Positions 12,596 to 33,112 of a DNA stretch of 33,320 nt are shown here, one piece after another. The position numbers and the translations under genes were made by a program. The stretch is from a bacterium. GTDB lineage: Bacteria > Zhuqueibacterota > Zhuqueibacteria > Oceanimicrobiales > Oceanimicrobiaceae. Below the pieces are notes generated by a model, which saw nothing but the letters and a program-made list of their open reading frames with translations, was not told the DNA's origin and made no database searches. The stretch's first letter is position 1, and each line of letters starts with the position of its first letter. The stretch covers positions 1 to 33,320 of the forward strand of contig JBHHXT010000037.1 of the NCBI GenBank assembly GCA_046757165.1, given 5' to 3'.

Positions 12596-12671
12596 CTAAG
12601 CCGGACAAGCCCCGCAGAAGGCGCGGGATTTGACAACCGGAAATTCTAAATCCTATACTCCAAATTCGAAG
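12596..12671 (+). repeat. Dispersed ~75-bp repeat, copy 2
   Basis: Direct-orientation match to 4486-4558. Confidence 0.85.
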
Positions 12672-12842
12672 AAAAAACTTGGCCTGCAAAAAGTCTTGCC
12701 AAAAAGTGGCAGAGGATAACTCGTCAGGCACTTAATACGATTACGTATTTAACCTCACCCAAAGACCGCCGAGCTTGTTTTTGACCTTCGTTTCTCTGCG
12801 GACTTTGCGGCTTTGCCTGGATGTTCCCCAAAAGTTCATCTG

Positions 12843-12910
12843 GTTCCCACGCTCCGCGTGGCGAACCAGTATTTGACGCTCCGCGTCGAGTCACGGGACG
12901 CAGAGCACCC
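12843..12910 (+). repeat. Partial REP-like element (GTTCCCACGCTCCGCGTGG / GACGCTCCGCGTC family)
   Basis: Two nested small palindromes followed by GACGCAGAGC. Confidence 0.65.
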
Positions 12911-13079
12911 TTACTTTGAGGGCTCCCATGCGGGTGTGCAGGGTTTTGTCTTTGAAGCCGTTAGCGTGGCCGGTGCGCTCATCGGTCCGTTTGTATGGAG
13001 CCGCCTTGCGAGCTTCAAGTCCGCTCAATCTTAGCAGCTTCGTTCAAAAGCGCTTGCAAGACGGCAGGCATGCCTTCGA

Positions 13080-13244
13080 ATGGCACTCTTGAATGGATTC
13101 AAATTGATTTGGTGTCCAATCTACCAGGGCATGGCTGACGCCGGCGTTGAGATCGGTTCGTGCATATTCGAGCCCAGTTGTTCAGAGTATGCCATTCAGG
13201 CGCTCAAAAAATATCCGCTGTCGCAGGCTGTTAGAGCGGCGTAA
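13080..13244 (+). pseudogene. yidD: Truncated YidD-like (membrane protein insertion efficiency factor) ORF, 54 aa, absent from ORF track
   Basis: Reads MALLNGFKLIWCPIYQGMADAGVEIGSCIFEPSCSEYAIQALKKYPLSQAVRAA*; C.F.PSCSEYA..AL.KY motif present, C-terminal RC.P...G.DP missing. Confidence 0.65.
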
Positions 13245-13581
13245 TGGGGTGAGTTTTTTGAGTCAAGGAGATTCCTTTTGCCGGCTTCAGCTTCGCCCTC
13301 GAGGATTCTTTCAAGAAAAAGCAATCTTTCGAAAACATCGGAAATCGTACAGTCGTCCGGCAATTGCTCTTTGGTTTTGATGGCTTTCTCTCTTAACGGT
13401 TGACATTTTGCCTCTTTCTTTTCGTTCACTTCAAATATAGAATCAACGAGCAAAATTGCAAGGAAAGCTTGAGCGATTGCCTCGATGTTCCCCAAAAGTT
13501 CTCTTTGTACTTAATGTAAGTTGCAGATAATAAATATGTTTATGCTTTTGATGTTCTATGAAAAGTCAAAAAAATAGAAAT

Positions 13582-13658
13582 AGTGATCCTACACAGTTTG
13601 CAACTGTGTATACCTCCCGGATTTGTGCGTAAAACACGGTTGCAAACCGTGTTGGATC
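13582..13658. repeat. REP-like element, full copy
   Basis: GATCCTACACAGTTTGCAACTGTGT ... ACACGGTTGCAAACCGTGTTGGATC. Confidence 0.85.
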
Positions 13659-13690
13659 GGACTTGAATGAAATAGGTTCACATCAAACGC

Positions 13691-13732
13691 AAAAAAAAAA
13701 CAGATACCACCACGCCTGCATGATGGTATCTG
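13691..13732 (-). terminator. Intrinsic terminator of the S8 protease gene
   Basis: CAGATACCA/TGGTATCTG stem followed by 10 T on the minus strand. Confidence 0.85.
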
Positions 13733-13772
13733 TCTGAATCGGCTGCTCAGAAACGAATGTCTTAATTAAGGT

Positions 13773-16026: not shown

Positions 16027-16899
16027 CTAGAAACACGGATGACCGACCGGCACCTGCAGGAGCGGGGCTTCCAGCTTGGGATACTTGGTGAAATCCGACG
16101 GTCTGGCCGTGCTCGGACCGTGCTGCACAAACCCGCCGACGCCGCCGGTGGTAATCCAGTCTTCCTCGGACCAACCATTTTCACAGGTGGTCGTGGCAAT
16201 ATTTTGCATATCCAACTGGGAGTCCATAAACATGAACGTGCCGGCAGGAATGACTCTGGGTGTCCCCGGGGCAAACTTCAGGATGTAGCGAATCCCCCAT
16301 CTGGGTTCTGTGACGGGTGTCGATCCATTGTTCGGATCCCAATCGCCGCTGTCGATAAATAAGCTGGCAGTTAAGGAAAGACCCGGAACGGGCAGACCAT
16401 CGGGTCCCTGGGTCACGACAAAGTCCCCTGGAACCGGCAGTCCCGGCAGGAAGTCATCATGAAAGACGCCTCTGAAGACCGTGGGTCTGTACGAGTTGGT
16501 TGCCGGGTCGAAGGGGCCCCAATGAAACGTAGCTATCTGTCCGTTCCAATTAGGATCGGGAGCAAAATCTGCGGTGAAATCATAGATTGCCCGATTGACT
16601 AACCGGAAAACATCACCCACTTCGGGAGCTCCCTCCCAGGTGAAGACGCCATCGCCGTTCACATCCGAGTAGCGCCAAAGAATGGTTACGCGTTTGGTGG
16701 CAACCGGATTGCCCGCGCGGTCGGTGATAGCAAGGCCGTCGATTTTGATTTTGCCTTTCTTGAGTTTGACTTTTTTCGCCAGTGAGGTCGTGTCATCTTT
16801 ACTGGCAATGGGCTCGGCCGGATTGTCACTGTTACATCCAATGACGAACAACAGGGCCATCATGACACCTGCAATAATGCAAAACGTGGTGACTCTCAT
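16027..16899 (-). CDS. Hypothetical lipoprotein
   Basis: 290 aa; lipobox VIG-C; AAGGAG RBS; SLAKK after the linker. Confidence 0.85.
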   Translation of the reverse strand: MRVTTFCIIAGVMMALLFVIGCNSDNPAEPIASKDDTTSLAKKVKLKKGKIKIDGLAITDRAGNPVATKRVTILWRYSDVNGDGVFTWEGAPEVGDVFRLVNRAIYDFTADFAPDPNWNGQIATFHWGPFDPATNSYRPTVFRGVFHDDFLPGLPVPGDFVVTQGPDGLPVPGLSLTASLFIDSGDWDPNNGSTPVTEPRWGIRYILKFAPGTPRVIPAGTFMFMDSQLDMQNIATTTCENGWSEEDWITTGGVGGFVQHGPSTARPSDFTKYPKLEAPLLQVPVGHPCF

Positions 16900-17362: not shown

Positions 17363-18670
17363 TTATTCAGATAGCTCATCCAGTTCTTGCTTGACCTTTT
17401 GGATTTCTTTTTCTGCCTCGAGTTCGGTAAATAAATCGAGCGCCAGCTCAAACTGCGTTGTCGCCGCTTTCGTGATCCCCTTGATTCTCAGCATTCTTCC
17501 ATATTCAAAATGTGTTTCGGCTTCGCATAGCGGGCTTCGGTATTTGCGAGTGATTTGCAGGCTTTTTTCGAAATAAGATTGAGCAGGCGCCCAGGCCCGC
17601 CTTTCAGCGTCGAGCATGCCCAGGCACTTATAGACTTCAGCCTCACCCAAATGGTCTTCGAGATGGAGATAGGTTTGCAACGCCTGGTGGCACAAGGCTT
17701 CTGCCAATGTCGTGTCGCCGATGGCTATGTAGAGTTTCACCCGATTGAGCTTGACGGTGGCTTCCAGGCGGACGTCCCCGATTTCCTTGGCGACTTGGTA
17801 ACTTCTTTCATAATGCGCGCCCGCTTCCGGCCAGCGACCGGCATCCGCGTAGGTCATGGCCATATTATGATAGGTCTCGGCCAGGCCTCTTCTTTCACCG
17901 ATTTTTTCAAATCGCGGCAGACTTTCACCATAATTCGTCAGCGCTTTCTCCCAATGTCCCTGAACGTTGGCCAGAGCGCCCAGGTTGTTGTAGACTTGCG
18001 CTATGAGTTTGGTCGCATCCAACTGCTCAGCCAATTCCAGACTTTTCTCCCAATGGGACGACGCTTCGGCCAATTCTCCTTGCTCGAAGCAGAGACAAGC
18101 GATGCCGTTGTAGGCATAGGCTTCGCCTTCCTGGTCGCCGGTAGCGTGAGATAGATTCACGCTCTCTTGATAGGATTCTCGTGCATCCTGCCATTGACTC
18201 CGCATCAAGAGGATATGGCCTATCCATCTCAGCGCTTCGGATTTCTCACTGCGATATTGTGGTTGTGAATTACACAGGCGAACGACTTGCCGGTAGGATT
18301 CCAGTGCCTGGTCCCAGGCCCCAAATGTCTCATACGACCGTCCAGCACTGAGATAGACCTGAATTGTCTGCGCCGGGGTCAAGGTTGAAGAAAACGATTT
18401 CACCAGGTGGGCAACGGCCCGTTGAAAATACTCCAGTCTTTTCTGTTGCTCGCTTTCTTCGAAGATGGTCAGAACAAATTTCTGCAACTCTTGCAAAAGA
18501 GAAGGCCATCCTTTATTAGCGGGTTGCGCTCGAGCCAACCAATTACTTAATTGCTCTCCGTGGTTGTTCTCTGGAGATTTGGAAGCTCGTGGGATCTGTT
18601 CTGTATGTTTTTTTGTCACTTTTGGGTTGAGTTTTCTGATTAGAACCCGCCTAGCCCTTGGAAAGCGCAT
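17363..18670 (-). CDS. Cytoplasmic all-TPR protein (TPR_12/MalT-TPR-like); start uncertain (GTG 18619 possible)
   Basis: About 8 repeats of the A..YNNLG......G.W..A...Y..SL type; no signal peptide. Confidence 0.88.
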   Translation of the reverse strand: MRFPRARRVLIRKLNPKVTKKHTEQIPRASKSPENNHGEQLSNWLARAQPANKGWPSLLQELQKFVLTIFEESEQQKRLEYFQRAVAHLVKSFSSTLTPAQTIQVYLSAGRSYETFGAWDQALESYRQVVRLCNSQPQYRSEKSEALRWIGHILLMRSQWQDARESYQESVNLSHATGDQEGEAYAYNGIACLCFEQGELAEASSHWEKSLELAEQLDATKLIAQVYNNLGALANVQGHWEKALTNYGESLPRFEKIGERRGLAETYHNMAMTYADAGRWPEAGAHYERSYQVAKEIGDVRLEATVKLNRVKLYIAIGDTTLAEALCHQALQTYLHLEDHLGEAEVYKCLGMLDAERRAWAPAQSYFEKSLQITRKYRSPLCEAETHFEYGRMLRIKGITKAATTQFELALDLFTELEAEKEIQKVKQELDELSE

Positions 18671-19220
18671 ACCTGGAAAAATGAGTCGTTTCTCCCCTCA
18701 CCTCGTTGGCTTCCGTGTCGACACTGCTGGAAATGGCATCCCAGGTCTGGGTGGCCGGATTCCAAACCACGATGACAAGAGACTCCGCATCAATCCCTTC
18801 CATAACGGCGTGGTCATAGCTAAGAACCAGATTGATCGCGAGGTCAAAGTGGGTCCCGTCCGGCTGTAAATCAAACATCAGGGTGTCGGAAAGAGGCATG
18901 GAAAAAGACAACTCGACGGTTTCACCCAATGCCCCGGCTGGCACCTCCACCTGATGGCCTGCATGGACGAGAACCCCACCGTCTGGACCAATCTCAGCGC
19001 GGCTGACACCATTTTCGTCATCATCCCGAACCCGAACCAACAAAAGGGTGGAGTTGCTGTTGTTCGGAACCTTGCCTTTTTTGTGCAAGATGACTTGCTG
19101 AGAGTCGTCTGGCCCTAGCAGCGACCCGCTGGGAGACTTGTTGCAAGCGGTGAAGCATATCGCGGCAAAGACCAAGAAAGTGCCCATGACCACAGGGCCC
19201 ATTTTTCTGACAGTCTTCAT
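18651..19220 (-). CDS. Lipoprotein with ZU5-like beta-sandwich domain
   Basis: AAGGAGG RBS; lipobox FTA-C; IGPDGG.L...VEVPAGAL, P.G..F, terminal THFSRYA. Confidence 0.85.
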   Translation of the reverse strand: MKTVRKMGPVVMGTFLVFAAICFTACNKSPSGSLLGPDDSQQVILHKKGKVPNNSNSTLLLVRVRDDDENGVSRAEIGPDGGVLVHAGHQVEVPAGALGETVELSFSMPLSDTLMFDLQPDGTHFDLAINLVLSYDHAVMEGIDAESLVIVVWNPATQTWDAISSSVDTEANEVRGETTHFSRYALSKG

Positions 19221-19286
19221 TTGTGACCTCCTTGAGTGTTATTGACAACGAGGATGAATTGCGTTGTTTCCGGGCAGCGCACCTCT

Positions 19287-19302
19287 TGCAAAGGATGTGC
19301 CG
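19287..19302 (-). promoter_or_regulatory. Sigma54 -24/-12 promoter
   Basis: CGGCAC-ATCCT-TTGCA on the minus strand, near-consensus. Confidence 0.8.
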
Positions 19303-19403
19303 TCTACGTATCTCCTTGTGAGATGACCTATATGTATTTGATCTTATTCGTTTTACAGCAGGATCTAAGCCTGGAGGCCAGGGATGAGCCGCGCACAATC
19401 ATA

Positions 19404-19459
19404 GTAACATAATATTACTTTTCGGTTCCATTTTCTAACAAAGTGCAACGATTCGTTAC
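19404..19459. promoter_or_regulatory. Tandem putative enhancers (UAS)
   Basis: GTAAC-ATAAT-ATTAC (19404) and GCAAC-GATTC-GTTAC (19445). Confidence 0.7.
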
Positions 19460-19506
19460 CATTGGACTCTTGCTTTCGGAGAAAATGCCGGGGCATGAAT
19501 CATGTT

Positions 19507-20895
19507 TTAGCGACTCTGAAGACCGTACTTTTGTATTTTTCTATCCAGGCGAGGTCGTGAGATTTTCAGAATCTGGCACGTTCTGCGTTTGTTCCAGTTC
19601 ATCTTCTCCAGCACGGCCTGGATGAGCAACTTCTCTCCGTCCTCCAAACTCATTCCGTCTGCTGGCACATCTATTTGCAGGGTTGTTGTTTGCTTCTTCT
19701 CAGTCATGACCAGCGGGGTCTCGGATTCTATGGCCTCTTCCAGGACCTCGCGAGTTACGCTTTCTCCCGGGTGCAGCAACACGATGCGTTCAATGGTATG
19801 TTTGAGCTCGCGCACATTGCCGGGCCAGTCGTAGCTTCTCAAGAGCCCCTCTGCCTCCGGCGTGAATTCACGTAATGCATTTTCATATTCTCTGGCATAA
19901 TGGGTTAAGAAGTGCCGCGCCAACAGAAGAACGTCCTCCTCCCGTTCCCTCAGCGCGGGAAGATGGATGGTAATCACATTCAGCCGATAGAACAGATCAT
20001 TACGAAAGAGCCCGTCCCGGATGGCAGCTTGCAAATCACGATTGGTGGCCGCAATAATTCGTGTTCTTACTTCGATGTCCTGGGTGCCGCCTACACGGCG
20101 AATTCTCTTTTCATCCAGGGCCTTAAGCAACTTAACCTGAACCGCAGGCGTGATTTCGCCGATCTCATCCAGGAACATGGTGCCATTCTGCGCCAATTCA
20201 AACAGGCCCTTCTTTCGACTCTTCGCATCGGTGAAGGCCCCCTTTTCATACCCAAAAAGCTCAGACTCCAACAGACTCTCCGGCAGGGCAGAGCAATTGA
20301 TCTCGACGAAGGGTTGAAATTGGTCCAGGCTATTGTAGTGAATGACGCGCGCAATCAGCTCCTTCCCGGTTCCCGTTTCCCCTCGCACCAGGACCGTCAC
20401 CCGTTTCCGGCTAATGATCTTAGAGACGATCTCCAGGACGCGCTTCATGGCCGCGCTCTCTCCCAGGATAGTGGTGAAATCGTATTTCCCCTTCAAATCC
20501 TGGTGTAAGCGCTCCCCTTTTGTAAGTTCCTGCCATTGTTGAAAGAGTTTTGACAGCTCGCGTTGAAGCTTGAAAGGCTCATCATGCACATTGATGACCT
20601 CGTACACCCCCATTTTGATCGCTTTCACAACCACGCTTAGCGGACTCGTGGAGGTGATGCCGATCACTTTGAAGGTGTCTTTGTCTTGCATGAGGTCTGA
20701 CAGGAACTCCAGTGGCTGCAGCTCCTCGAGGTCAAAATCAACAATCACGAGCTGCGGCTCTTTGCGGCGCGCAATGGAAAGAGCGTTAGCTTTTTTCCTG
20801 GTGGTCAACAACGCGCTTTGTCCGCTGTCCAGAGTCGTACCGTCGAGTAACTTTTGTTTCTCGGAGCCTCCCAGGAACAGTATCTTGAATGGCAA
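19507..20895 (-). CDS. Sigma54-dependent Fis-family activator (NtrC-like) with atypical receiver
   Basis: [51 protein letters not shown]-terminal HTH; TTG start. Confidence 0.95.
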
Positions 20896-21127: not shown

Positions 21128-22879
21128 CTAATAGAAGACCTGCATTCTTATCTTGCCCAGGAACACATTCGCAGGCGTGTCACCGAAAGCCGGGCCTGAA
21201 CGAAAATAGCCTAAGTTGAGCGTAACATCGAGGTGTCGAACCTCCCGAAAGGTCAGAACGACATCCAGCTCTTTTCCCAGGTCCCGGTGACTGCCAAGTG
21301 GCTCGGCGCCGAGGTTGGAGTCGCGCAGAAACGGCTGCGCCACGACTTGATGGTAGGCGTGAAAGATCAATTCCAAGGAGGATTGTAAGGTGGGCCGCAA
21401 GGCAAGTCCGATGGTAAGAATCCGCATGTTGCTCAGCTCAGGCTCGAACAGCTCGCCGTAATATTTGACGCGTTTTAGACCGCCTAACTTCACGCTGTTA
21501 TCTTGCAGGCCGGTCTGCCGGAAGCTCGAGTCCTCCCTGTCTTCGATGTTGTCATCGCCTGAACCGTATGCCATCCCCACGCTCAATGAGATCGGTTTGG
21601 CCCATCTGGTGCCGATACGCAAACCGGCGTCGTACCCCCATCCTTGCACGGTGTTGACTTCATCGGTGCCAAACACCGACGCCACATTCGACCAATATCG
21701 AATGATCTTGTGGAACTGGCCGCGAAACTGCACGCCCCACCAATTCAAGGCAATATTCTGATCATGATGTTTGCGGCCATAGGCAAAGCCTGTGAAATAG
21801 GTTCGGCGCGCCAGCCTGACTCGTGTGGATAGATAGTACTGAAGTTGATTGAGCGCATCATCGCGGTCATCCTGAGGGAAAAAGTCGCCCTTGATCAGCC
21901 CCACTTGCATATCCAGACGTTTGGTATCGTATATGAGGCGGAACGCATCGAGCGTTTCGTCGAACAACCATTCCCGTTTATCCTTGAATTTCTGCCGCCC
22001 AAACTGCATTCGTAACGGCGCGCCGAAGAGGTCATAGTACGTCAGGTACATCTCAGAGACTTCAAATCGAGTCGAGGCATCGTCATCATCGTTGGACCGG
22101 ATGAGCGGTTTACGTTTCAGCTTGAACCTGGCATACCCCTGAACCTCTGGATTGAAGTTCACAGAAAGCTCGGGTTTGAAGCTCAAGCGGGACGCCATTT
22201 CATCCTCTCCGCCATCCAAATCGAGATTGTTCTGGGGTTCCACTTCCACCTCGACCTTGCCGCCGATAATCAAAAAATCGCCGATGCGAAGCGGGGCCGG
22301 CTGCTGATCGTCATCGTCTCTTTTGATCGAATGGATGGACCGCCTTTTCTCTCTGGCATCTGTGAAGCGAACGGATTCGTCAAAAAGGATGGGAATATCC
22401 AGAACCAGACACGCGAACCGGTCGCCATCGTTCAGCCGTTGAATTTCGCCTTCGATGACGGTCTGGTCATCCGGGCGCGCTGCAATGACCTCTATTCTGA
22501 AGGCGACTAAGGATCTCTTACCGATTCGGCGGCCTTCTATCCGCACCCAATTCCCGACCATCAATTTCCTCCTCGGAATCCGCTGCGCCCGTTCATCCAG
22601 GATCTCGGTTTTTTCATCCAGGAACACATCCACGCCTGTGAGCGACAACAGCTTTGAGTCGATGCTGATGCTGCCAATCTCGCTCTGCAACAAAGCATCT
22701 TCAGCAGCGTCCTTTAAGACCACCCGTTTGCCCCCAAAAAAACCACCCGGGAGATATTTCCCGGTGACAGCGATCCTCTGACCTGGCTTCAGATCGTTGA
22801 CTTCAGCCGGGGTGGAAAAAGGGACCAGGCCGAAAAAGATGCTCAACCCGGCAAGCCCGATTGCAACCATTTTGACCAT
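21128..22879 (-). CDS. Alginate-export (AlgE-like) outer-membrane barrel with N-terminal DUF5666-like repeats
   Basis: Signal peptide; two L..G..V...G repeats; GRQKFKDKREWLFD, AYGSGD, FRQTGLQDN, YGELF.PELSN, GKELD; aromatic C-terminus. Confidence 0.88.
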   Translation of the reverse strand: MVKMVAIGLAGLSIFFGLVPFSTPAEVNDLKPGQRIAVTGKYLPGGFFGGKRVVLKDAAEDALLQSEIGSISIDSKLLSLTGVDVFLDEKTEILDERAQRIPRRKLMVGNWVRIEGRRIGKRSLVAFRIEVIAARPDDQTVIEGEIQRLNDGDRFACLVLDIPILFDESVRFTDAREKRRSIHSIKRDDDDQQPAPLRIGDFLIIGGKVEVEVEPQNNLDLDGGEDEMASRLSFKPELSVNFNPEVQGYARFKLKRKPLIRSNDDDDASTRFEVSEMYLTYYDLFGAPLRMQFGRQKFKDKREWLFDETLDAFRLIYDTKRLDMQVGLIKGDFFPQDDRDDALNQLQYYLSTRVRLARRTYFTGFAYGRKHHDQNIALNWWGVQFRGQFHKIIRYWSNVASVFGTDEVNTVQGWGYDAGLRIGTRWAKPISLSVGMAYGSGDDNIEDREDSSFRQTGLQDNSVKLGGLKRVKYYGELFEPELSNMRILTIGLALRPTLQSSLELIFHAYHQVVAQPFLRDSNLGAEPLGSHRDLGKELDVVLTFREVRHLDVTLNLGYFRSGPAFGDTPANVFLGKIRMQVFY

Positions 22880-22882: not shown

Positions 22883-23716
22883 CTAGCGCTCCTTTAGACC
22901 GGCGTGTCTTTGGCAAATCTGTTCGAAATTCGGAAATTCGACCCCGGATACCGTCTTCAAGAGCGTCAAGATCCAACCAACAAAACCGAAATCCGTCGCC
23001 TGCATCTCATGGTGGTGCAGGAGGACGCCAACCGTTGATTTTGTTCTCAAAGCGGCCTGAATCTCGAAGAGCAAGTGGCCGGGCGCCTTCATTTCCGGAG
23101 CAGGCCGGCAATGGTGCAGGTCCACAACTGTCGAGATCTCCACCAGCTCGAAATCGGTCAGCCCAATGTGGCCGCCATCCGCCGAAAGCACCTCGAAGCC
23201 GAGCTCGCGCAACGACATCAAGGTGCTGCGATCATAGCGATTCCATGGTGGGGTAAAGGCCGGAAAGAAATCTTGCAAGAACAGCTCGCTCATTTTATCT
23301 TTGCCAGCGACGATGTCCAGAAATTGGTCGATTTGCGTCCGCGCATCGCCGAACTCCTGCTTTTTGCCGTTGCGACTGTGATTTTCATGACTCCAGCCAT
23401 GTTGGCTCAGGAAAACCAAATGCGGGTGACGCTGCTTCAATTCTCTCAAATAGTCGACCGCCTCCTGCGTCACCTCTCTGGGAATAACCTGAAGGTGCAG
23501 CGGAATCTCTTTTCCAACGAACACCTCCAGAAGATGAACCAGATTCGGTGTCAGCTCATCCGCATCGTCGTCACGAAAGAAAAACGAAATGGGCCTCTGG
23601 TGATTCGTGTGCGCTTCTTCGACCAGCTCAGCAAGGGTTGCTGCGAAGCCGTGTTTCTGCCATCGGGCCGCAAGCCTTTTGTACGCTTCACGATGTTGGA
23701 TCCTTTCGAGCTTCAT
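22883..23716 (-). CDS. Polysaccharide deacetylase (CE4/NodB-like)
   Basis: FFRDDD, QHGWSH.NH, FTPPWN, LLHH motifs; start set at ATG 23716 behind GAGG. Confidence 0.88.
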   Translation of the reverse strand: MKLERIQHREAYKRLAARWQKHGFAATLAELVEEAHTNHQRPISFFFRDDDADELTPNLVHLLEVFVGKEIPLHLQVIPREVTQEAVDYLRELKQRHPHLVFLSQHGWSHENHSRNGKKQEFGDARTQIDQFLDIVAGKDKMSELFLQDFFPAFTPPWNRYDRSTLMSLRELGFEVLSADGGHIGLTDFELVEISTVVDLHHCRPAPEMKAPGHLLFEIQAALRTKSTVGVLLHHHEMQATDFGFVGWILTLLKTVSGVEFPNFEQICQRHAGLKER

Positions 23717-23742
23717 GCCATTTTCCTCTGATAAAACAGACC

Positions 23743-23802
23743 GTAACGCGACATTTATGTCGCAGGGCTCGAGAATGACACTCGACATAAATGTCGAGTT
23801 AC
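23743..23802. repeat. REP-like inverted pair overlapping the GT 3' end
   Basis: GTAACGCGACATTTATGTCG ... CGACATAAATGTCGAGTTAC. Confidence 0.8.
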
Positions 23803-24963
23803 ATGTACACCCGGCTGGCATGCCTGGTCGATAAATCGCCTCGTGTTCTCCACGCCAGAGAGGTTCATTTCAAAAGAACTTGCTTGCAACTGCGCCGCTG
23901 ATTCTATGGCCAGGGTCAGACTTTTCGGGTTCAACTCTTCCGAGGGCAGCAGGGTCGCCACCCCCTTTGCAGCCAGAGACCGCGCCCGGCGCAGCTGCTC
24001 ATCGTTGCCGCCGCCGATAAAAGGCACGAACACAGCGGGAACACGGGCTTGCAAGACATCCAGGCAGGTGTTGTAGCCGGCCATGCTCACCGAAACATCG
24101 GACTGTTTGAGAAGCGCACACAGATTCGGAACAAAGGTCTCGATTCTGGTGTGCGGGTCATCTGCCGCCAGCAGATCCAATCGCATTCTCTCGGCTTGCG
24201 GCAAGAACGGCCCGGTGACCAGGGTCAGGTCCACGGGGGAGGCCCGATCCAGATATCTTTTGGCGTGCAGGGCCGTCTCGAGCAAAACCATGCCGACCCG
24301 TCCGCCTCCGGCACTGACCGTTATCTTCGTCAACGGCGATGAACGCGCGCGGGGCAGGAATTTTCCGCCTCCGTTGCCGTTTTCTGGCACCACGTAGCCG
24401 GTGTAACAGATGTTCGCTTGCAGCTCCTGCCATCTCTTGAAAGAGCCCTCGAGGGAGTGCATGCGGGCGTCGGAGTGCACCAGGATCGAGTCGAAGTAGC
24501 GGTTGACCAGGCGGCACACGCGTTGCTCGAATTTAGCCGGGTCTTTCTTCTTGACCAAAATGTCACGCAGGCTGCAGACAACATGCGCCCGGTTGGCATT
24601 GGATAGATTCGCCTCCAGCAAGGGCACCAGCTCGAAGGCGAACTTTTTGCGCCCGAACGGGAAAAGCTCAACGACGATGATGTCCGGTTGAACGTCCTTG
24701 TAGAGCTCGAGCAGCGTCTCCTTTCGACGTTGCTGGATTTCCGCTAAGGTTTCTGTCCCGGTGAGTTTGAAGTTGCCATCGCTCGCAATCGGGGGTAACT
24801 GCACCATGACCACGTTTTCCGGCAGCGCAATGCCGGGGATGGCCACCCCACCGTTAATGAAATAGACCTTATGATCTGACAACCCGGCGGCAAGGGCCAT
24901 GCTACGCACATAGTGCCCCATGCCTAACAGGTGTTGGCAGTACAACAGGATTTTCTTTTCCAT
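23755..24963 (-). CDS. GT-B glycosyltransferase (COG4671 / GT28-C-like)
   Basis: YCQHLLGMGH, ELFPFGR, CSLRDIL, YTGYV, SAGGGRVG, SMAGYNT, EQ..RA; GAGG RBS before ATG 24963. Confidence 0.9.
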   Translation of the reverse strand: MEKKILLYCQHLLGMGHYVRSMALAAGLSDHKVYFINGGVAIPGIALPENVVMVQLPPIASDGNFKLTGTETLAEIQQRRKETLLELYKDVQPDIIVVELFPFGRKKFAFELVPLLEANLSNANRAHVVCSLRDILVKKKDPAKFEQRVCRLVNRYFDSILVHSDARMHSLEGSFKRWQELQANICYTGYVVPENGNGGGKFLPRARSSPLTKITVSAGGGRVGMVLLETALHAKRYLDRASPVDLTLVTGPFLPQAERMRLDLLAADDPHTRIETFVPNLCALLKQSDVSVSMAGYNTCLDVLQARVPAVFVPFIGGGNDEQLRRARSLAAKGVATLLPSEELNPKSLTLAIESAAQLQASSFEMNLSGVENTRRFIDQACQPGVHVTRHLCRVSFSSPAT

Positions 24964-25921
24964 GCTCGAACCTCGCAAAGTCAGTAAACCACCGAACAAA
25001 CTTCTCGATGCCCTGCTCAATCTCAACCTGCGGCCGGTAGCCTAATTCTTCCCGGGCTTTGCTGATATCCGCGAAAGTCACCGGTACATCGCCTGCCTGT
25101 TGCGGCAGAAATCCGATGTCCGCCTTCTTGCCGAGGGCCGTCGAGATCAGCTCGACCAACGTGAGCAGCTCAATAGTCTTCGATTCTCCCAAATTGTAGA
25201 TGTGATACCCAGTGCACCTGTCGATGGACTTGCAGATGCCCTGGATAATATCTGTGATGTAGGTATAATCCCGGCGAGACCGCCCGTCGCCGTAAAGGGC
25301 GATTTTGTCTTGCTGAAAAATACGTTTCGTAAATTTGTGAATCGCCATATCCGGACGCTGCCGCGGACCGTAAACGGTGAAAAATCGCAAACAGGTCACC
25401 GGCAAAGCATAGAGATGGTGATAGGTGTAACAAACCAGCTCCCCCGCCTTTTTGCTGGCCGCATACGGGGAAATCGGATGGTCGACCACGTCCGCCTCGC
25501 TGAACGGCACCTTCTTGTTCCGCCCGTAAACGGAGGAGGAGGACGCAAAAATGAACTTTTGCACCCCGAAATCTTTGGCCGCCTCCAGCAAATTCACGGT
25601 TCCCTGCACGTTGACCTTCTGATACAACGGCGGATCCTGGATGGACGGTCTGACGCCGGCCCTGGCGGCAAGATGCACAATGGTGTCAATTCGCGTACTC
25701 TCAAACACTTGCCGCAGGAATCCCTGGTCGAGGATGTCCCCCTCGACCAGCTGATAATTCGCCTTGCCCAGAAGTCCCCGAAGGTTGTCGCGCTTGATTT
25801 TTGGGTCGTAATAGTCGTTGAAATTGTCCAGACAGAGGATTTGGTGGTCTCGCTGCAACAGCGCCTCACACAGGTGCGAGCCGATAAAGCCGGCCCCTCC
25901 GGTAATCAGAATTTGTTTCAT
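24902..25921 (-). CDS. NAD-dependent sugar epimerase (UDP-glucuronate 4-epimerase-like)
   Basis: TGGAGFIG, HLAARAGVRPS, ASSSSVYG, YAASK, LRFFTVYGPRQRPDMA. Confidence 0.93.
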   Translation of the reverse strand: MKQILITGGAGFIGSHLCEALLQRDHQILCLDNFNDYYDPKIKRDNLRGLLGKANYQLVEGDILDQGFLRQVFESTRIDTIVHLAARAGVRPSIQDPPLYQKVNVQGTVNLLEAAKDFGVQKFIFASSSSVYGRNKKVPFSEADVVDHPISPYAASKKAGELVCYTYHHLYALPVTCLRFFTVYGPRQRPDMAIHKFTKRIFQQDKIALYGDGRSRRDYTYITDIIQGICKSIDRCTGYHIYNLGESKTIELLTLVELISTALGKKADIGFLPQQAGDVPVTFADISKAREELGYRPQVEIEQGIEKFVRWFTDFARFEHGKENPVVLPTPVRHGALCA

Positions 25922-25951: not shown

Positions 25952-27184
25952 TCAGATTTTTAGAACATAGATCGGAATCAACTCCGCCACCGGGCGGCCC
26001 AATTCCAATTCAACGGTTTGCGAAAGAATCTCCTTGCCGCGGTATTCGTAGGGGACGTTTCTCAAATCCGTGATGATTTCGCTGCCCTGTCCCTTTCTGG
26101 ATTTCACCTCGAAAAAACGTCGCCCGTCGATTTCGTGCACCCGGAGCACGCTTTTCCAGCCCGGATAATTGTAGCCGGCGCCATGCGGCAGCATGTTGGC
26201 GTTCAGCAGACGGTGCTCCACGCCCAACCGCTGCGCGCGTTCCCGCCAGCCCAGTTTCTCCAGCATTCTGACCGAGTAGTTTTGCACGCCCCGGCACAGA
26301 TAAGCGGGCAAATCGGGCCGCAGCGCCAGAGGCGCCAGGAACTCACCCGAATGTTCCGTCCAGGTGTTGATGCCCAACGCGATGGTATTCATATCCACCA
26401 GTCCTTGATGATTGGCGTTGGCCAGGGGGATGAACTCGTCAAAAAGCAGCTCGGCGGCCCGGTTGCGCCGCTTTTGAGCGAACGCTTCCGCGACCTGATA
26501 GAACTGCCAGTAGGCCGTGGCGCGGTCGCCGGTCAGGATGTGCATCGGGCCAAAGGGGGTGTCGACGGTTTCGGCCCACTGGCGCAGCGTCTTGCTGGAA
26601 TCGATGTACAATCCGGGGCCCAGGTGCGACTCCTTCTTCAGCTCGCTGCCGGAAGTATGGGCCATAAACGCGTACGGTGGCAATTTCAAGCCCGACTCCA
26701 GAGGGCGGACTTCAAAGACATCGACGAAATGATTGCCCTTTTCCAGATTCCATTTGATCTTGATGCCGTCGACTTCACACTGCTCATCCTTCATCCGTAC
26801 CGACCGGCGAATCAAAGTTTCTTTCGAGGGCAGTTTCTCCAATCCGCCGACAAACATCCCGCAGCAATTGGGTTTGGTGTCCAGGAACATCAATTGCGTG
26901 TCACCGTCACCCCAGGCCAGTTTCCCGCCGTAGCCAAACCCACTTTGCCAGCGGTAGCTGTTGATGGTGACGGTCACGTCAGGGGAAGTGATAAACGTTG
27001 CGCTCGGCGGGAGAGCCAATTGTTGCTGCACATAGTGCATCTTTGCCAGGCCATATTTCATATTCTCCAGACAGAGCTCGGCGCCAACATCCAGGGGACG
27101 CGTATGAAAGATGAACTGGGCTGCGTCGTCTAACTGTCTATTTTTTCCCATTGCCGTTCTTTCCATTTCCATTTCCATTGCCAT
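25952..27184 (-). CDS. Divergent RtcB-fold protein (start between 27184 and 27151)
   Basis: RtcB-like motifs in canonical order: SPD, GFGYGG, NCCGM, GNHF, AHTSG, NHQ, PHGAG, YR, terminal PIYVLK. Confidence 0.75.
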   Translation of the reverse strand: MAMEMEMERTAMGKNRQLDDAAQFIFHTRPLDVGAELCLENMKYGLAKMHYVQQQLALPPSATFITSPDVTVTINSYRWQSGFGYGGKLAWGDGDTQLMFLDTKPNCCGMFVGGLEKLPSKETLIRRSVRMKDEQCEVDGIKIKWNLEKGNHFVDVFEVRPLESGLKLPPYAFMAHTSGSELKKESHLGPGLYIDSSKTLRQWAETVDTPFGPMHILTGDRATAYWQFYQVAEAFAQKRRNRAAELLFDEFIPLANANHQGLVDMNTIALGINTWTEHSGEFLAPLALRPDLPAYLCRGVQNYSVRMLEKLGWRERAQRLGVEHRLLNANMLPHGAGYNYPGWKSVLRVHEIDGRRFFEVKSRKGQGSEIITDLRNVPYEYRGKEILSQTVELELGRPVAELIPIYVLKI

Positions 27185-28181
27185 TGTAGTTGAAGTTGAT
27201 CAGGGTTGCGCCATAATCGCTGTACTGGCAGGTCTGGCACAAAGGCAGCTCCCGCGTTTTAATCTGCTCGCGGACTTGCTTCATTTTGTTGCTCTGCAGG
27301 ATATTCAGGAGGCCGCCGTCTTTGTTGACGTTTGCAAATACGTGCTCGCCACTGGAATCGTAGCAGCAGGTAGTGACATCGCCGTTGGAGAGCACGACGC
27401 CGTTTTCGTACGCCCAACTGCAAACCGAATCTTCGATTTTCAATTGCAGATCTTCCTCTGCCACCACATACTTGCGGTATTTGTCGTTTTTCGGCAGCAG
27501 CTTCCGGGCAATTTTCTTGCGAATGTTGCCGTCGATCCACGTGCCCAGAGAGACGTTTTTCAACGCCAGCTGATCGACCTGCATCTTCTCGGCCATATCG
27601 ATGATGTCTTCGATTTCATGCTCGTTGTAGCTGAACACCAGGTACTGCAATCGAATAAACGGCCATTTGCGCCCCAGTTTGCGCTTGCTCTGCGCCAGAC
27701 GGTTGATGCCCTCCACGACTTTTTCGAACTCGCTGCCGATGCGGTACCGTTCATGGGTCTCCTTGCTGGCGCCATCGAGACAAACGATGATCCGCTCCAG
27801 GTTGGACCAGAAGATCTTTTCGATGTGCTCCTCTTCGAGAAAGGTCGAATTGGTGCTCACTCTGATCTTGATTCCCCGGTCCGAGGCGTACTTGACCATG
27901 TCGAAAAAGTCAGGATTCAGAAACGGTTCGCCAAAGTTCCAGAAATCGATTTTCTTGGCGTGGCCGACGAGACCATCGATCACCTCCCTGAACGTGTGCA
28001 TCTCCATGTGCCCGACGTTACGATGCAAATGGGCCGGGACCGGACACAGCGGACATTTCAGGTTGCACAGACTGGTCGACTCGACCATGAATTTGTTGGA
28101 GTACAACCCTGCTTCATTGGGCACCTGGCTCATGGTCCGCAAGCCCTTCTCTGCATGAACTTCTTCTTTGGTAACAGTCAT
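27138..28181 (-). CDS. Radical SAM protein with SPASM/Twitch domain
   Basis: CNLKCPLC, GEPFLN, STN, LDG; C-terminal CSWAY...NGDVTTCCYD...CQTC; GAGGAG RBS. Confidence 0.93.
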   Translation of the reverse strand: MTVTKEEVHAEKGLRTMSQVPNEAGLYSNKFMVESTSLCNLKCPLCPVPAHLHRNVGHMEMHTFREVIDGLVGHAKKIDFWNFGEPFLNPDFFDMVKYASDRGIKIRVSTNSTFLEEEHIEKIFWSNLERIIVCLDGASKETHERYRIGSEFEKVVEGINRLAQSKRKLGRKWPFIRLQYLVFSYNEHEIEDIIDMAEKMQVDQLALKNVSLGTWIDGNIRKKIARKLLPKNDKYRKYVVAEEDLQLKIEDSVCSWAYENGVVLSNGDVTTCCYDSSGEHVFANVNKDGGLLNILQSNKMKQVREQIKTRELPLCQTCQYSDYGATLINFNYNGNGNGNGKNGNGKK

Positions 28182-28504: not shown

Positions 28505-29860
28505 TCAAGCCTGACCCAACACGGTTTGCAGCCGTGCTTTACGTTGGCCCAAATAGTGCTGAGCGAGATTCAAGTAGAATTCCACTTTTTCGCCGGCATT
28601 TTTCTCCAGTTGCCGCAAAACTTTGTACGCCCGGCGGCAGAGCAAAGCAGTGGCTATCTGTGAGTTGAGCGCCTCATCTGAAACCTCCCAGGACACGAAT
28701 TCACGATATAACGATGTAAAAAGCCCGATGACCTGCTCGATTTCGCTGGTCGAGAAGTATTCTTGAGCGGCCAAACGATGCAATCCGGCGATAAAATGTG
28801 CCACATCGTAGAGTGGGTCTCCAAGGCTGACCGAATCAAAATCCACCATGACAACTTTCCCAGGCTCAAACAGGAGTTGTGAGTCGTTAAAATCACCATG
28901 GATTGTCGTTTGCATGGACGGATTCCAAAAACGCTCCGAGCCGCGCAGACGAGCCAACAGACGTTCGATGCGCGGTTGTATCCGCGGATAGAGATGCGTT
29001 AACAGCTTCGTGCGTCCCAGCAGCTTATTAAAGCTCTCTTCTCGAGTATACTCAGGCAAATCCTCCAATTTCGAGCGATGCAAATCTGCCAGCGCCCTGG
29101 CCGTCATCACGCAAGCGCGAGACAAACCTTTGGCTCGCGCAAACTGTAGAAAGGAAGACCCGTTCGTCCAGCGCTGCCAGAGCACTTTGCGCCGGTCATC
29201 GTAAGCAAGCGGCTCAACGACGCCGAAGGCCTTCGGCTGTGCCAGGGTCTGCTGCCAAAGCCGCTGCATCACAGAATACACTCTGGCGCCCCGGTCGTCG
29301 CCGTAAGTTTTGCCGAAAACTTTCGTGCACTTTCCGGAAGGCCCGTGGTTCATTTCGACGACAAGCGCACAATGCCTGCGCGGCACATAATTCAGCGGCT
29401 CGACGCTCAACTCACGACGGTGCCCGCTGCCATTGCTGTCGAATATGCGCAGGTCGGTCAGAATCTTTTCGATGTCGTCGGCAGCTGTCAACTCTGCCAG
29501 GCTCTCGAGTTTGGGGTCGTGCGGGAATCGCCAAACATACATGCCCAGCGCCGGCAGCAGGTCCGCCCCTTTGGCTTTCAGCCGTGCTTGCTTTTTCGCA
29601 GCATTTCCGGGGCTTTCGATGCGCGTGTACAAAATTTGCGCCCGGGGCAGACTGGCAAAATCGAGCGCATAGGTCACGATACAGCGCTTGCCGGGCTTGT
29701 AGCGTTTGCCAATGATCGTGCACGCGTTCAGCTCGCCGCTGCCACTGCTCATTTCACGGCTAAAGTGCTCCCGAAAGAAATCCAGCATGAAGGTTTCATC
29801 GAGAACCCACGGGAGTTGTGGCAGTCTCGAGTCTATGATGTTGTTGCTTCGTGTTTCCAT
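28505..29860 (-). CDS. APH/choline-kinase-like phosphotransferase
   Basis: RYKPGKRC, FPHDPKL, NYVPRRHC, FGKTY, HGDFNDSQLL, DFD, GDPLYDVA; start uncertain (29860 or 29920). Confidence 0.88.
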   Translation of the reverse strand: METRSNNIIDSRLPQLPWVLDETFMLDFFREHFSREMSSGSGELNACTIIGKRYKPGKRCIVTYALDFASLPRAQILYTRIESPGNAAKKQARLKAKGADLLPALGMYVWRFPHDPKLESLAELTAADDIEKILTDLRIFDSNGSGHRRELSVEPLNYVPRRHCALVVEMNHGPSGKCTKVFGKTYGDDRGARVYSVMQRLWQQTLAQPKAFGVVEPLAYDDRRKVLWQRWTNGSSFLQFARAKGLSRACVMTARALADLHRSKLEDLPEYTREESFNKLLGRTKLLTHLYPRIQPRIERLLARLRGSERFWNPSMQTTIHGDFNDSQLLFEPGKVVMVDFDSVSLGDPLYDVAHFIAGLHRLAAQEYFSTSEIEQVIGLFTSLYREFVSWEVSDEALNSQIATALLCRRAYKVLRQLEKNAGEKVEFYLNLAQHYLGQRKARLQTVLGQA

Positions 29861-29950
29861 TATTCGCAATGCACCTTGATTTTTTCTGACGCTGTTTCTC
29901 TCTGATTCCCTCAGATACAAAATAAAAACATGGGCCCTTTATCTGAGAAA

Positions 29951-31711
29951 TTACCCGCTGAAGCCAGGATGACAAACCTGCTGCAGACGAGACGGTTGCA
30001 GCTCACTGATCTCCCCCCTCTCCAAGCAGTAGATCTTGTCCATTTCGAGCGCCAATTGATGTTGATGCGAGATCAGGATCGTCGTCTTGTTTCGGGTCAG
30101 GATTCTTAGCTGGTCCCAGACTTCTGCCTCAGTGGCGGGGTCCAAACCTGTCGTGGGTTCGTCCAGGACAATAATTTGAGCATCCCTGAGAATCGCCCGC
30201 GCGATGGCGAGTCTCTGTCTCTGGCCGCCCGACAAAGTCGCCCCACGTTCACCCACAATCGTTTCATACCCTTGCGGCAAACGGCAAACAAAATCATGAA
30301 TCCTGGCGAGTTTGGCCGCAGCCACAATTTCCTCCCGAGTGGCGTCCAGCCGGCCATAGGCGATATTCTCGCGGATAGACGTTCGAAAGAGCAAGGTTTG
30401 CTGCAGCACAAAGCTCAACTGCCCGCGAATCGAATCCGCGGTAAACGCGCCAAGATCATGCCCATCGATCAGAATTCGACCAGCGGTCGGGTCGTACAGT
30501 TTCGCGAGCAAGCTGACCAATGTGGATTTCCCGGAACCGGTGGGGCCAACTATGGCCACTTTTTCGCCGGCCGCAATCTCGAGGGTGAGGTCGTTCAATA
30601 CAGGAACATCCCCGTCATAAGCAAAATGAACGTGTTGAAATGCAATGTTGCCTCGAAGTTTGGGTGCGATGCGTGACGTCTGGCTGTCGCTTTGAGGTTC
30701 CGTCTGCAAGAGTTCGGCAATTTTCTCCCAGTGGACTTGTCCCCGCACCAGCCGGCGGAGCTGTCTGGAGAAATCTTTGAGCGGTTTGTAAAACGCCCGC
30801 AGATAGGAGAGAAACACCCAGAGGTCCCCGGGCGTGAGCACGCCAGCCTTAACGCGAATGACGCCAAAGCAAATCACCACCACCACTCCGAAGGCGGTCA
30901 CCACCTGCACGACGGGCATAAACTTGGCTTCCACGTTGGAGGCATTCAGAGCCGCCTCGAGATTGGCTTCACTCTCATGTTCAAAAAGCTCATCGGTAAA
31001 CTTTTCCCGGCTGTATGTTTTGACGGTCTCGATGGACGAAAACGTCTCCTGAGCGATGGAAGCGAGATTTCCCTCCCGGTGCCGCCGGGTGCGAGCGGCC
31101 CGTTTTATTTTCCGGGTGAAAATCATGGTGATGTAAAAAAGCAGCGGCGCCAGAATCAAGGCGACCAACATCATCTGCCAATCCATCCAAAACATGATCG
31201 CGGCCATCCCCAGGATCAGAAGCGTGCCTTTCAGCAATCCGGACAGGCTTTCGGAAAAGACGCCTTCCAGGAAGCTCGTATCGTTGGTGATGCGCTTGAC
31301 CACCTCTCCGGTGCGGAGGCTGTAATGAAACTGCAAACTCAGCCGCTGGACGTGCGAAAACAACCGGGAGCGCAGCCGGGTGATAATTTCACCGCCGGTC
31401 TTCTTCTGCAAATAAGTGGAATGATAGGTGATAACGCCATCCGCCACCGCGATCAAAAGAATGGCCGCAGCGATAAAAGCAAGAAAAGCCGGGACCGAGT
31501 CCGTCAAAACTGCTGGCAAAGCCAAACCCACGCCGCCGCGGCCGGGCTGACCTTCCACAAGATAGTCGATGACGAATTTCAGCGGCCAGGGTTTGAGTAA
31601 TTCGGCCAGGATGGCTCCCAAAGTCAGAAAAAAGATCGACCCGAAGGCGCGTCGATGGGCCTCGAGATTCTCTGCAACAAATGCAAACGTGTACTTTCGT
31701 GATTTGCTCAT
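29951..31711 (-). CDS. ABC exporter, fused permease/ATPase (MsbA-like)
   Basis: 6-TM domain (LLKPWPLK); GPTGSGKS, LSGGQRQR, IIVLDE, SH. Confidence 0.95.
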   Translation of the reverse strand: MSKSRKYTFAFVAENLEAHRRAFGSIFFLTLGAILAELLKPWPLKFVIDYLVEGQPGRGGVGLALPAVLTDSVPAFLAFIAAAILLIAVADGVITYHSTYLQKKTGGEIITRLRSRLFSHVQRLSLQFHYSLRTGEVVKRITNDTSFLEGVFSESLSGLLKGTLLILGMAAIMFWMDWQMMLVALILAPLLFYITMIFTRKIKRAARTRRHREGNLASIAQETFSSIETVKTYSREKFTDELFEHESEANLEAALNASNVEAKFMPVVQVVTAFGVVVVICFGVIRVKAGVLTPGDLWVFLSYLRAFYKPLKDFSRQLRRLVRGQVHWEKIAELLQTEPQSDSQTSRIAPKLRGNIAFQHVHFAYDGDVPVLNDLTLEIAAGEKVAIVGPTGSGKSTLVSLLAKLYDPTAGRILIDGHDLGAFTADSIRGQLSFVLQQTLLFRTSIRENIAYGRLDATREEIVAAAKLARIHDFVCRLPQGYETIVGERGATLSGGQRQRLAIARAILRDAQIIVLDEPTTGLDPATEAEVWDQLRILTRNKTTILISHQHQLALEMDKIYCLERGEISELQPSRLQQVCHPGFSG

Positions 31712-33112
31712 CTATTCAACCCCGGCCGGTTCTCCAGAATCCAGGATTTGCTCGCACAACGCTAACATCGCGTAGGCTCGCTCCATCCACCCCGCTTTGA
31801 CCGGACGCAGAATGCACTGAAAATAGGCACACCACAGACAGCTCAGGGCGCAGTACGTGGGGATCACCGCACGCAGCTCCTCAGAGCACCCGTGGATGTA
31901 CGTTTTCAGAAACGCCCGAACCCCGTGGTCCAAAGCGGTGTGATTTTGGTAGCGCTTCAAGGCAAGCAATTTCAGTTGGGCATAAAAGGACCCGACATCG
32001 ATTGCCGGATTGCCCATCAGACAATTCTCGAAATCGAGCAAGCTCAGACGCTGACCGTCGACCAAAATGTTGGCGACGTGAAAATCGCCATGAACCAGCT
32101 TTGGCTTGAGCCGGTTTTGCCCGAGCAACCTCATTTCCAGAGTAAAAATCGAATTCCGGATCCGGTTCCACTCGTCAGGTCGGCTTTGACCAAAATCTTG
32201 CCCCCACGCCTTCAGCTCCAGCAATTCATCCGACAAACTTTTGGTCTCATTCAATAGAACCGGAGTTTCATGAAAGTCCAGCAAGCCGCGGGCAACCCGC
32301 CGACACAGGTCCGGGAAGGTTTTCCTGCCGCAGACGTACGAGAGCTGTGTGCCGGGCAGAGCGCTGAGCAATTCCAACCGGAACTCCGGAACGAGACCCA
32401 GGGGTGTGGGAATTTGAAAAACCGAATTGTACCACGCCTGGTGGATGGTTTCCAGGTTGGCATACACCCGCTTCACTTTGCGAAAGACTTTGCCATAGAC
32501 ACTCTGCGTCGGGGTGCGGGGCTCCCGCGAGTCCTGCCAATGAAGCTGATACCGGAGCAAGCATTTGCGTTCAGGCTTATACTGAACGACCGCAACGTCA
32601 ACGTGCGTCAACTTCCCCGCCTCATCGCCGCAAATATGCTCCAACACCGGCTTCATCACCTCCGAATCGGTGGCAGGGATCAAAAAGGGCAGGCGGCGAT
32701 CGGCCGGAAATATTTGCACCAGCATCCCAAGAGCCGGGGAGTACACGGCAGCTTTCTGAAACACGCTCAAGATTTTGTTTTTCTGAATATCTAGAAGAAA
32801 CTGGCGGTTCATCTTCTCTTGCCATTCTTTTCCCGCTTTCGGTGACATCGTACGGGCAAAGAAGTAGTAGGGGCGCCTTTGAGAACCCGGCGATTCAGCC
32901 TGATACAAAAGCCTGAGACCCTCGAGCGGATTATTCTTCATCCAGATGAGTTTGAGGTTTTCAAGCACCAATTTTCCTGAGACAAGGTGTTGAAGAAAGC
33001 CCTGCATTACCTGTAGCTCGGGGGTCACATTTGTCAACTGCAGCGTGGGGTCTACCAAGATGAGCTCCTCATAAGGATTGGGTTCACGAGCGTCCTGAGA
33101 TGTGTGTGTCAT
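31712..33112 (-). CDS. APH/choline-kinase-like phosphotransferase
   Basis: FPADRRLP, QYKPERKC, YGKVF, HGDFHVANIL, DFE, GNPAIDVG; GGAGG RBS. Confidence 0.9.
   Translation of the reverse strand: MTHTSQDAREPNPYEELILVDPTLQLTNVTPELQVMQGFLQHLVSGKLVLENLKLIWMKNNPLEGLRLLYQAESPGSQRRPYYFFARTMSPKAGKEWQEKMNRQFLLDIQKNKILSVFQKAAVYSPALGMLVQIFPADRRLPFLIPATDSEVMKPVLEHICGDEAGKLTHVDVAVVQYKPERKCLLRYQLHWQDSREPRTPTQSVYGKVFRKVKRVYANLETIHQAWYNSVFQIPTPLGLVPEFRLELLSALPGTQLSYVCGRKTFPDLCRRVARGLLDFHETPVLLNETKSLSDELLELKAWGQDFGQSRPDEWNRIRNSIFTLEMRLLGQNRLKPKLVHGDFHVANILVDGQRLSLLDFENCLMGNPAIDVGSFYAQLKLLALKRYQNHTALDHGVRAFLKTYIHGCSEELRAVIPTYCALSCLWCAYFQCILRPVKAGWMERAYAMLALCEQILDSGEPAGVE

Follow-up and report, generated by a model that had tools for sequence, protein, structure and literature searches.

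The window analyzed here, a stretch of 33,320 nucleotides, corresponds to positions 1-33,320 on the forward strand of contig JBHHXT010000037.1 (assembly GCA_046757165.1), from a bacterium of the family Oceanimicrobiaceae in the phylum Zhuqueibacterota. Its right-hand part carries a gene cluster lying entirely on the reverse strand which, read in the direction of transcription, encodes an APH-fold kinase (kinase 1, 31712-33112), an MsbA-like ABC exporter (29951-31711), a second APH-fold kinase (kinase 2, 28505-29920), a radical SAM/SPASM enzyme identified by Pfam (27138-28181), an RtcB-like enzyme (25952-27151), an NAD-dependent nucleotide-sugar epimerase/dehydratase (24902-25921), a GT-B glycosyltransferase with a GT28 C-terminal domain (23755-25026) and, according to the Pfam scan, a DUF2334/polysaccharide-deacetylase-like protein (22883-23821) and a DUF5666-containing, alginate-export-type outer-membrane porin (21128-22879). 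The initial annotation had described the neighbors of the RtcB-like gene as sugar enzymes. This holds for the glycan cluster around it, but the gene directly coupled to it, encoding the radical SAM/SPASM enzyme, had been overlooked. Further along the same strand (17363-20895) are genes for a sigma-54 response regulator, for a protein of 189 aa that matches nothing in Pfam, and for a TPR protein. This trio, or part of it, also flanks the glycan cluster in three relatives (G050, G064 and G063) and is therefore probably its regulator. Elsewhere the window harbors a tmRNA gene (262-627, forward strand; tag ADNYAYAMAA) and open reading frames of 290, 313 and 204 aa (16027-16899, 10860-11801 and 3721-4335), none of which has a match in Pfam. 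Another contig of the same genome, C159, is probably continuous with the window and contributes upstream GT28-GT4-GT4 genes that run off its end.

The longest call for the RtcB-like gene is an open frame of 410 aa (25952-27184, reverse strand). This longer call arises because an Asn-Gly repeat closes the radical SAM gene (27138-27184, reverse strand), and the other frame of this repeat offers several ATG codons. Translation more likely begins at the ATG at 27151, as in the protein collection, where the entry (P0001) has 399 aa, and all residue numbers below are counted from this ATG. With this start, the gene overlaps the stop of the radical SAM gene by 14 nt. A comparable overlap occurs in 4 relatives, and a gap of 11-13 nt in 2. 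Scans for promoters and terminators returned counts near the shuffled expectation, and neither GC nor GC3 marked the two-gene cassette as clearly foreign. The motifs SPD, GFGYGG, KPNCCGM, KGNHF, AHTSG, NHQ, PHGAG, YR and PIYVLK, on which RtcB homology had originally been proposed, are all present in the order given. As a control for chance, none of 20,000 protein shuffles matched a loose ordered-motif pattern, and only 2 out of 3,358 long frames in the genome did so, namely the RtcB-like frame and canonical RtcB.

The relationship to RtcB lies beyond ordinary sequence searches. The RtcB-like frame had no match in Pfam, NCBIfam or single-sequence PDB searches; P0001 matched no family, the best E-value (0.007) being found in 3/120 alignment members. 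A profile of alignment A1 reached RtcB only at E 0.53, and a comparison of A1 with a single RtcB sequence fell short of significance (P 0.2). Only deeper profiles gave significance: in a local profile-profile comparison, 90 diverse members matched 28 canonical RtcBs with P 97.5 and E 3e-11. An AlphaFold2 model computed from a 120-sequence alignment scored a pLDDT of 94 and a pTM of 0.93. Foldseek returned 16 matches at E < 0.001 for this model, the leading ones all being RtcB chains (3e-7 to 9e-6 among the matches listed). When compared by VIA-align with 48,161 representatives, the model matched 2epg with Z 21.0 (rmsd 3.4, 306 aligned), the next entry scoring Z 4.8, and ten RtcB entries gave Z 18.9-21.7 and rmsd 3.2-3.5 Å over 304-319 residues at 12-16% identity. 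The highly divergent RtcB fold suggested at the outset is thus borne out by Foldseek, the AlphaFold2 model, VIA-align and profile-profile comparison alike: as modelled, and as confirmed by independent methods, the protein has the RtcB fold over its whole chain.

In RtcB, Cys98, His234 and His329 coordinate metal 1, and Asp95, Cys98 and His203 coordinate metal 2; His404 is the nucleophile, and the metal ligated by Asp95 is in contact with the gamma phosphate of GTP (PMC9745838, PMC8051266). Glu206 and Lys480 read the guanine (PMC9745838), and contacts to the 5'-OH strand come from Asn202, Arg190, Gln194 and Arg238 (PMC8051266). We assigned equivalents by profile alignment and motif order, not by residue-level superposition. 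On this basis, Asp58 (26978-26980; Asp65 position) is found in 120/120 proteins of A1 and 86/90 diverse members, and the K93-P-N-C-C97 motif (26861-26875) supplies Cys97 (86/90) as the counterpart of the bridging Cys98. Asn140-His141 (26729-26734) correspond to Asn202-His203 (88/90 and 90/90), and the stretch from His165 to Glu170 (26642-26659) begins with the equivalent of His234 (90/90). The profile alignment misplaces His248, and the match of His248-Gln249 (26405-26410) to His329-Asn330 rests on motif order and the invariance of the histidine (90/90). His323 (26183-26185), the predicted nucleophile, is aligned to the HGAG motif at His404 and is likewise invariant (90/90). All seven residues (D58, C97, N140, H141, H165, H248 and H323) are kept together in 80/90 diverse members. 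The early proposal that the metal Cys/His ligands and the nucleophilic histidine are retained is supported by these counts, and the enzyme is apparently metal-dependent and catalytically competent, as far as its predicted core residues indicate.

Other positions depart from RtcB. An aspartate is found at the Asp95 position in 0/90 diverse members, with proline in 73/90, in agreement with the change noted initially in the DINCG motif. In the absence of an equivalent of Asp95 at this site, it is uncertain whether an NTP is used. The residue two before Cys97 (N95) is asparagine in 81/90 and aspartate in 5/90, and may replace Asp95. Three contacts to the 5'-OH strand, kept in 28/28 canonical RtcBs, are replaced in the profile alignment (Arg190 by Asp128, Gln194 by Ile132 and Arg238 by Ser169); the glutamate following Ser169, Glu170, is invariant (120/120 in A1). 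The reported differences at the glutamate of GNHFxE and the asparagine of HN exist, but both are conservative (E to D and N to Q). The arginine motif after HGAG is indeed replaced. The guanine-contact positions, D144 (Glu206) and K398 (Lys480), are kept in 14/14 proteins of the subclade described below and vary in the deeper family (D/E in 31/90, K in 50/90). Basic residues specific to the family are kept as well (R67, K77, K93, R229 and R371), and its net charge is lower than that of RtcB, yet within about 1.5 SD of it.

The genomic context offers little link to RNA repair. As the initial annotation had it, no rtcA, rtcR, archease, Ro or prfH gene lies nearby: models for these proteins matched none of the 25 window ORFs scanned. 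The sigma-54 activator in the vicinity was considered as RtcR and rejected, as it has a receiver domain. Across the family, no rtcA, rtcR or prfH was seen among 127 neighbors scanned, and canonical rtcB or archease was found near the RtcB-like gene in 1/129 loci. In this sole case (L038, 4236-7971), the RtcB-like gene and an HD gene converge on archease and canonical rtcB. The window's genome has its own canonical rtcB, beside an archease-like gene (a label given from reading the sequence) on contig C31. Canonical RtcB was present in 45 of 50 carrier genomes tested, out of 80 and including the unpublished G183. Enrichment of canonical RtcB among carriers was rejected, the background in the phylum being already 159/167 genomes. 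The RtcB-like enzyme does not replace canonical RtcB. In seven genomes (G172, G211, G212, G149, G157, G159 and G161) the frame of canonical RtcB is about 990-1030 aa long, gave a split profile match and probably contains an intein.

Relatives of the RtcB-like enzyme are diverse and patchily distributed. At E < 0.001 we collected 459 proteins forming 361 clusters at 50% identity, with 380 matches in GTDB genomes of bacteria and archaea. The best 80 of these 380, whose loci were examined, came from Spirochaetota, Chloroflexota, Planctomycetota, Atribacterota, Nanoarchaeota, Methanosarcinales and others. Three phylum searches found the gene in 5/167, 8/201 and 2/201 genomes. In two further phylum samples, of 301 genomes around G170 and 86 around G171, nothing but the starting genome matched. 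Two fragments were dropped from all counts, one of 76 aa with two stops (G155, E 1e-4) and a 37-residue piece at a contig end (G343). No relative was found in the viral contigs searched.

The commonest partner of this wider family is a dedicated YpgQ-like HD hydrolase and not a glycan gene. A gene of the cognate HD subfamily was present in 32/80 GTDB loci, from which the HD profile was built, in bacteria as well as archaea. It was adjacent and on the same strand in 29, either upstream or downstream. It was also found in 7/48 JGI loci, many of them short. Among 201 Spirochaetota genomes the same 8, 7 of which were already among the family loci counted, hold both the RtcB-like and the HD gene, side by side in 7. 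In 49 further carrier genomes, HD was located elsewhere in 9 and none was seen in 40, these genomes being incomplete. The HD profile matches YpgQ/YedJ (E 1e-15 to 1e-13), including 5dqv, the structure of YpgQ, which PMC8177086 describes as a Mn-dependent (d)NTP pyrophosphohydrolase. Tandem duplications of the HD gene occur in L025, L075, L142, L143, L166 and G234. No glycan context was found outside the subclade, and the other neighbors are lineage-specific. For example, in Anaerolineae and one other lineage (L011, L012, L023, L025, L046, L057 and L007) the RtcB-like gene precedes a gene for a circularly permuted ATP-grasp-like protein, often together with an AstE/AspA-like gene and, in three loci, upstream U32-family genes. 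Similarly, neighbors include spermidine synthase and SAM decarboxylase genes in Atribacterota (L054, L067 and L079), and TetR, DksA-type finger and PolX-PHP genes in Planctomycetota (L013 and L034-L036). Finally, a single protein of a distant branch (P0139) is a fusion of an APH kinase, only remotely like those of the window, and an RtcB-like domain. This protein was found separately; a search for longer fused forms with A1 yielded none among 7,995 candidates, which is weak evidence, and another candidate, P0150 (565 aa), was rejected since its tail looks like frameshifted read-through.

The window's protein and its relatives at 61-83% identity form a subclade placed among HD-linked members, with a stem as long as 0.57 in one tree (support 1.0) and 0.51 in another, the exact sister not being resolved in the trees. 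A metagenome scan with the subclade alignment returned 49 loci, none of the subclade. Two residues nearly invariant in other members, Arg63 (106/106) and Asp135 (103/106), are replaced in 14/14 subclade proteins (here by I63 and N135), and positions 96, 262 and 365 are also shifted, with Cys96 found in 14/14 subclade proteins versus 13/106 others. The sequence pattern at Arg63 and Asp135 would fit a specificity switch at a putative pocket. The partner has changed as well. Cognate HD is absent from the window's genome, where the best score was 44 bits versus about 290-340 for full-length members, and from the genomes of L002-L006. In its place, the radical SAM gene (73-93% identity) lies directly upstream in 7/7 loci with context (the window, L002-L006 and G063), which are related and in several cases on short contigs. 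Kinase 2 precedes the radical SAM gene, and a GT28-type gene follows the pair, in 6/6 subclade loci each where the sequence reaches. Within the cluster, the pair comprises the best conserved genes, radical SAM and RtcB-like proteins of L005 being 73% and 64% identical to those of the window versus 33-43% for kinases, ABC exporter and glycosyltransferase. Of 167 genomes in the phylum, the same 5 hold the RtcB-like enzyme, a close radical SAM orthologue (83-100% identity; at most 38% in others) and a close kinase-2 orthologue (43-100%; at most 32% in others); these include the unpublished G158 and G162 and overlap with the 7 loci, so that they are not extra cases. The subclade itself and its switch of partner from HD to radical SAM, with few changes (63, 135, 262 and 365) at the putative pocket, are new.

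The best PDB sequence matches of the radical SAM alignment are BlsE, BtrN and DesII (E 2e-10 to 3e-4). The best NCBIfam matches are maturase models far below their cut-off (131 of 380 bits), and no curated model reaches its cut-off for this protein. A UDP-glucose/GDP-mannose dehydrogenase gene lies 14 kb from the cluster (6030-7373, reverse strand) and is not linked to it in the relatives examined; its product could supply uronic acid for a BlsE-like reaction.

Comparison of related clusters sets the pair apart from its surroundings. In G064 and G050, of the same family, a GT-GT4-GT4-kinase-ABC-kinase-GT-porin cluster contains neither the radical SAM nor the RtcB-like gene, the kinase is directly followed by the glycosyltransferase, and a heparinase-like gene is found instead. 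In clusters without the cassette, GT4 and kinase are separated by a heparinase II/III-like gene (L190, 6278-8317; L191, 8347-10374), which is absent from the cassette-bearing G063 and L005; this gene and the cassette are possibly alternative accessory modules. The epimerase was considered as a partner and rejected, as it is present in the window only among 6 subclade loci with downstream sequence. At the same place L005 carries genes for a methyltransferase and a rhamnulose-phosphate aldolase/dehydrogenase (11314-14264), and the site after the RtcB-like gene appears to be a variable tailoring slot.

Taken together, these data make activation of a small phosphorylated molecule, and not RNA repair, the probable role of the RtcB-like enzyme. 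A small acceptor is favored by three independent partner types, that is, an HD pyrophosphohydrolase, a fused kinase, and the combination of kinases, sugar-type radical SAM enzyme and glycosyltransferases. Our working model for the subclade, to which we give roughly even confidence, is a His-nucleotidyltransferase that takes a sugar or polyol phosphate made by a kinase and activates it for the tailoring of a glycoconjugate. The radical SAM and RtcB-like genes would then form a two-gene tailoring cassette added to a glycoconjugate synthesis and export cluster. An APH-fold kinase would make a sugar or polyol phosphate (X-P), and His323, as the conserved residues suggest, would attack an NTP, probably GTP, to give His-NMP. 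By analogy to the formation of RNA-3'-ppG, the NMP would be passed to X-P, giving an NDP-X donor, and the likeness to BlsE and BtrN suggests that the radical SAM enzyme would oxidize, epimerize or decarboxylate the sugar part. Either a glycosyltransferase would use this donor, or the RtcB-like enzyme would itself join X-P to a hydroxyl group of the glycan, forming a phosphodiester; the two outcomes are not distinguishable, since the equivalent of N140 serves both steps in RtcB. The kinases need not supply the substrate, as clusters lacking the pair contain them too.

The initial annotation had envisaged that an RtcB may have been repurposed from RNA repair to sugar-phosphate chemistry, which is partly supported. 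In its favor are the fold, the retained core, the lost strand contacts, the lack of RNA-repair neighbors, the canonical RtcB elsewhere in the genome and the glycan context. This context extends across the subclade but does not hold in general, as the wider family has no glycan neighborhood and is mostly tied to HD. A departure from RNA ligation, if it took place, would thus be older than the association with glycan genes. We therefore propose, more tentatively than for the subclade, an old second branch of the RtcB fold consisting of small-molecule His-nucleotidyltransferases. Its HD-linked majority would write and erase a nucleotide, and the subclade would be a novel type of NDP-sugar synthase or a one-enzyme phosphodiester-forming transferase that, with its radical SAM partner, puts an undescribed substituent on an exported glycoconjugate.

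Several other functions are conceivable. The enzyme could write a nucleotide signal or modified nucleotide, such as a dinucleoside polyphosphate or an NMP-capped metabolite, that HD erases, after the manner of a synthetase/hydrolase pair. In the subclade, the radical SAM enzyme would then tailor this nucleotide, which might either control the glycan cluster or simply be hosted there. The frequent, mostly adjacent cognate HD gene in GTDB and JGI loci, its co-occurrence in the same 8/201 Spirochaetota genomes, its YpgQ-like character and BlsE, which by its name acts on a nucleoside sugar, all fit, and for the HD-linked majority a writer and eraser is the likelier reading. For the subclade we consider it unlikely, given that cognate HD is absent from the window's genome and those of L002-L006, and none was seen in 40/49 further carriers, although these are incomplete, while the cassette is always inside a glycan cluster (7/7 loci). 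Chemistry on nucleic-acid ends, by a ligase or a 3'/5'-phosphate capping enzyme akin to RtcB/RtcB3 with a rebuilt RNA-binding surface, would agree with what the fold is known for, as all of its chemistry described in the available portions of PMC8051266 and PMC10630183 takes place on polynucleotide ends. The kept Asn202 equivalent, the family-specific basic residues and the arrangement in L038 also speak for it. With three 5'-OH-strand contacts lost, canonical RtcB co-occurring, repair genes near 1/129 loci only, no viral match and the glycan cluster context, we regard it as quite improbable.

An NTP-independent phosphotransferase or phosphodiesterase ranks slightly lower still in our estimate. 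With the second-metal aspartate gone, a phospho-His323 would open or move a (cyclic) phosphodiester on a small molecule; RtcB itself hydrolyzes 2',3'-cyclic phosphate (PMC9745838). The family-wide loss at the Asp95 position and the variable guanine-contact positions of the deep family would fit such an enzyme, but the conserved Asn/Asp two before the cysteine (N in 81, D in 5 of 90) could replace Asp95, and the subclade keeps D144 and K398. Finally, the radical SAM protein might be a maturase of the RtcB-like protein, acting on a metal site with a second cysteine, or the pair might act on a protein or peptide. Cys96 of the subclade, the overlapping genes and the sub-threshold maturase matches can be read in this way. 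The nearest solved radical SAM relatives are nevertheless sugar-modifying enzymes and most of the RtcB-like family has no radical SAM neighbor, which leaves this the least probable of the four.

No title or abstract listed in our literature searches dealt with the RtcB-like family, although a comparative survey of systems for RNA repair from 2016 might mention it. An RtcB review lists, in its available portion, nucleic-acid activities only (PMC10630183). If true, a family that combines the catalytic core of RtcB with small-molecule partners, and that no library model covers, would bring RtcB chemistry into metabolism and open a further way of making activated sugars or glycans decorated with phosphodiesters. 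Related clusters with and without the cassette provide a natural control.

In comparison with RtcB (PF01139; P. horikoshii 4dwq/1uc2, T. thermophilus 2epg and human 7p3b), the RtcB-like enzyme has the same whole-chain fold and shares the equivalents of Cys98, Asn202, His203, His234, His329, His404 and, within the subclade, Lys480. In contrast, Asp95, Arg190, Gln194 and Arg238 are replaced, and the same is true of three motifs, HRKG, PGxMG and the Arg after HGAG. The archaeal-type insertion is shorter by about 60 residues, and a new conserved T-R/I-N-x-x-R-W segment follows Asp58. Its first step, if the proposed mechanism is right, would resemble that of RtcB. It scores below the Pfam and NCBIfam cut-offs and lacks RNA-repair neighbors; by profile score, Asp95 position, strand contacts and neighborhood, it falls outside the RtcB ligase family. 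The likeness of the radical SAM partner to BlsE (cytosylglucuronate decarboxylase), BtrN and DesII covers only its N-terminal 120-160 residues. The HD protein of the wider family constitutes a subfamily separate from the YpgQ/YedJ hydrolases, found almost only with the RtcB-like gene. NDP-sugar pyrophosphorylases convert X-phosphate and NTP into NDP-X and PPi, the same net reaction as proposed here, and are likewise placed between kinase and glycosyltransferase; however, they have a different fold and form no covalent His-NMP. No Pfam match to their domain was found in the RtcB-like frame, residues 3-399 of which are taken up by the predicted RtcB fold. The closest precedent for stopping at a nucleotidylated phosphate is capping by RtcB and Myxococcus RtcB3, as reviewed in PMC10630183, although these enzymes act on DNA or RNA ends and, unlike the RtcB-like enzyme, are recognizable RtcBs.
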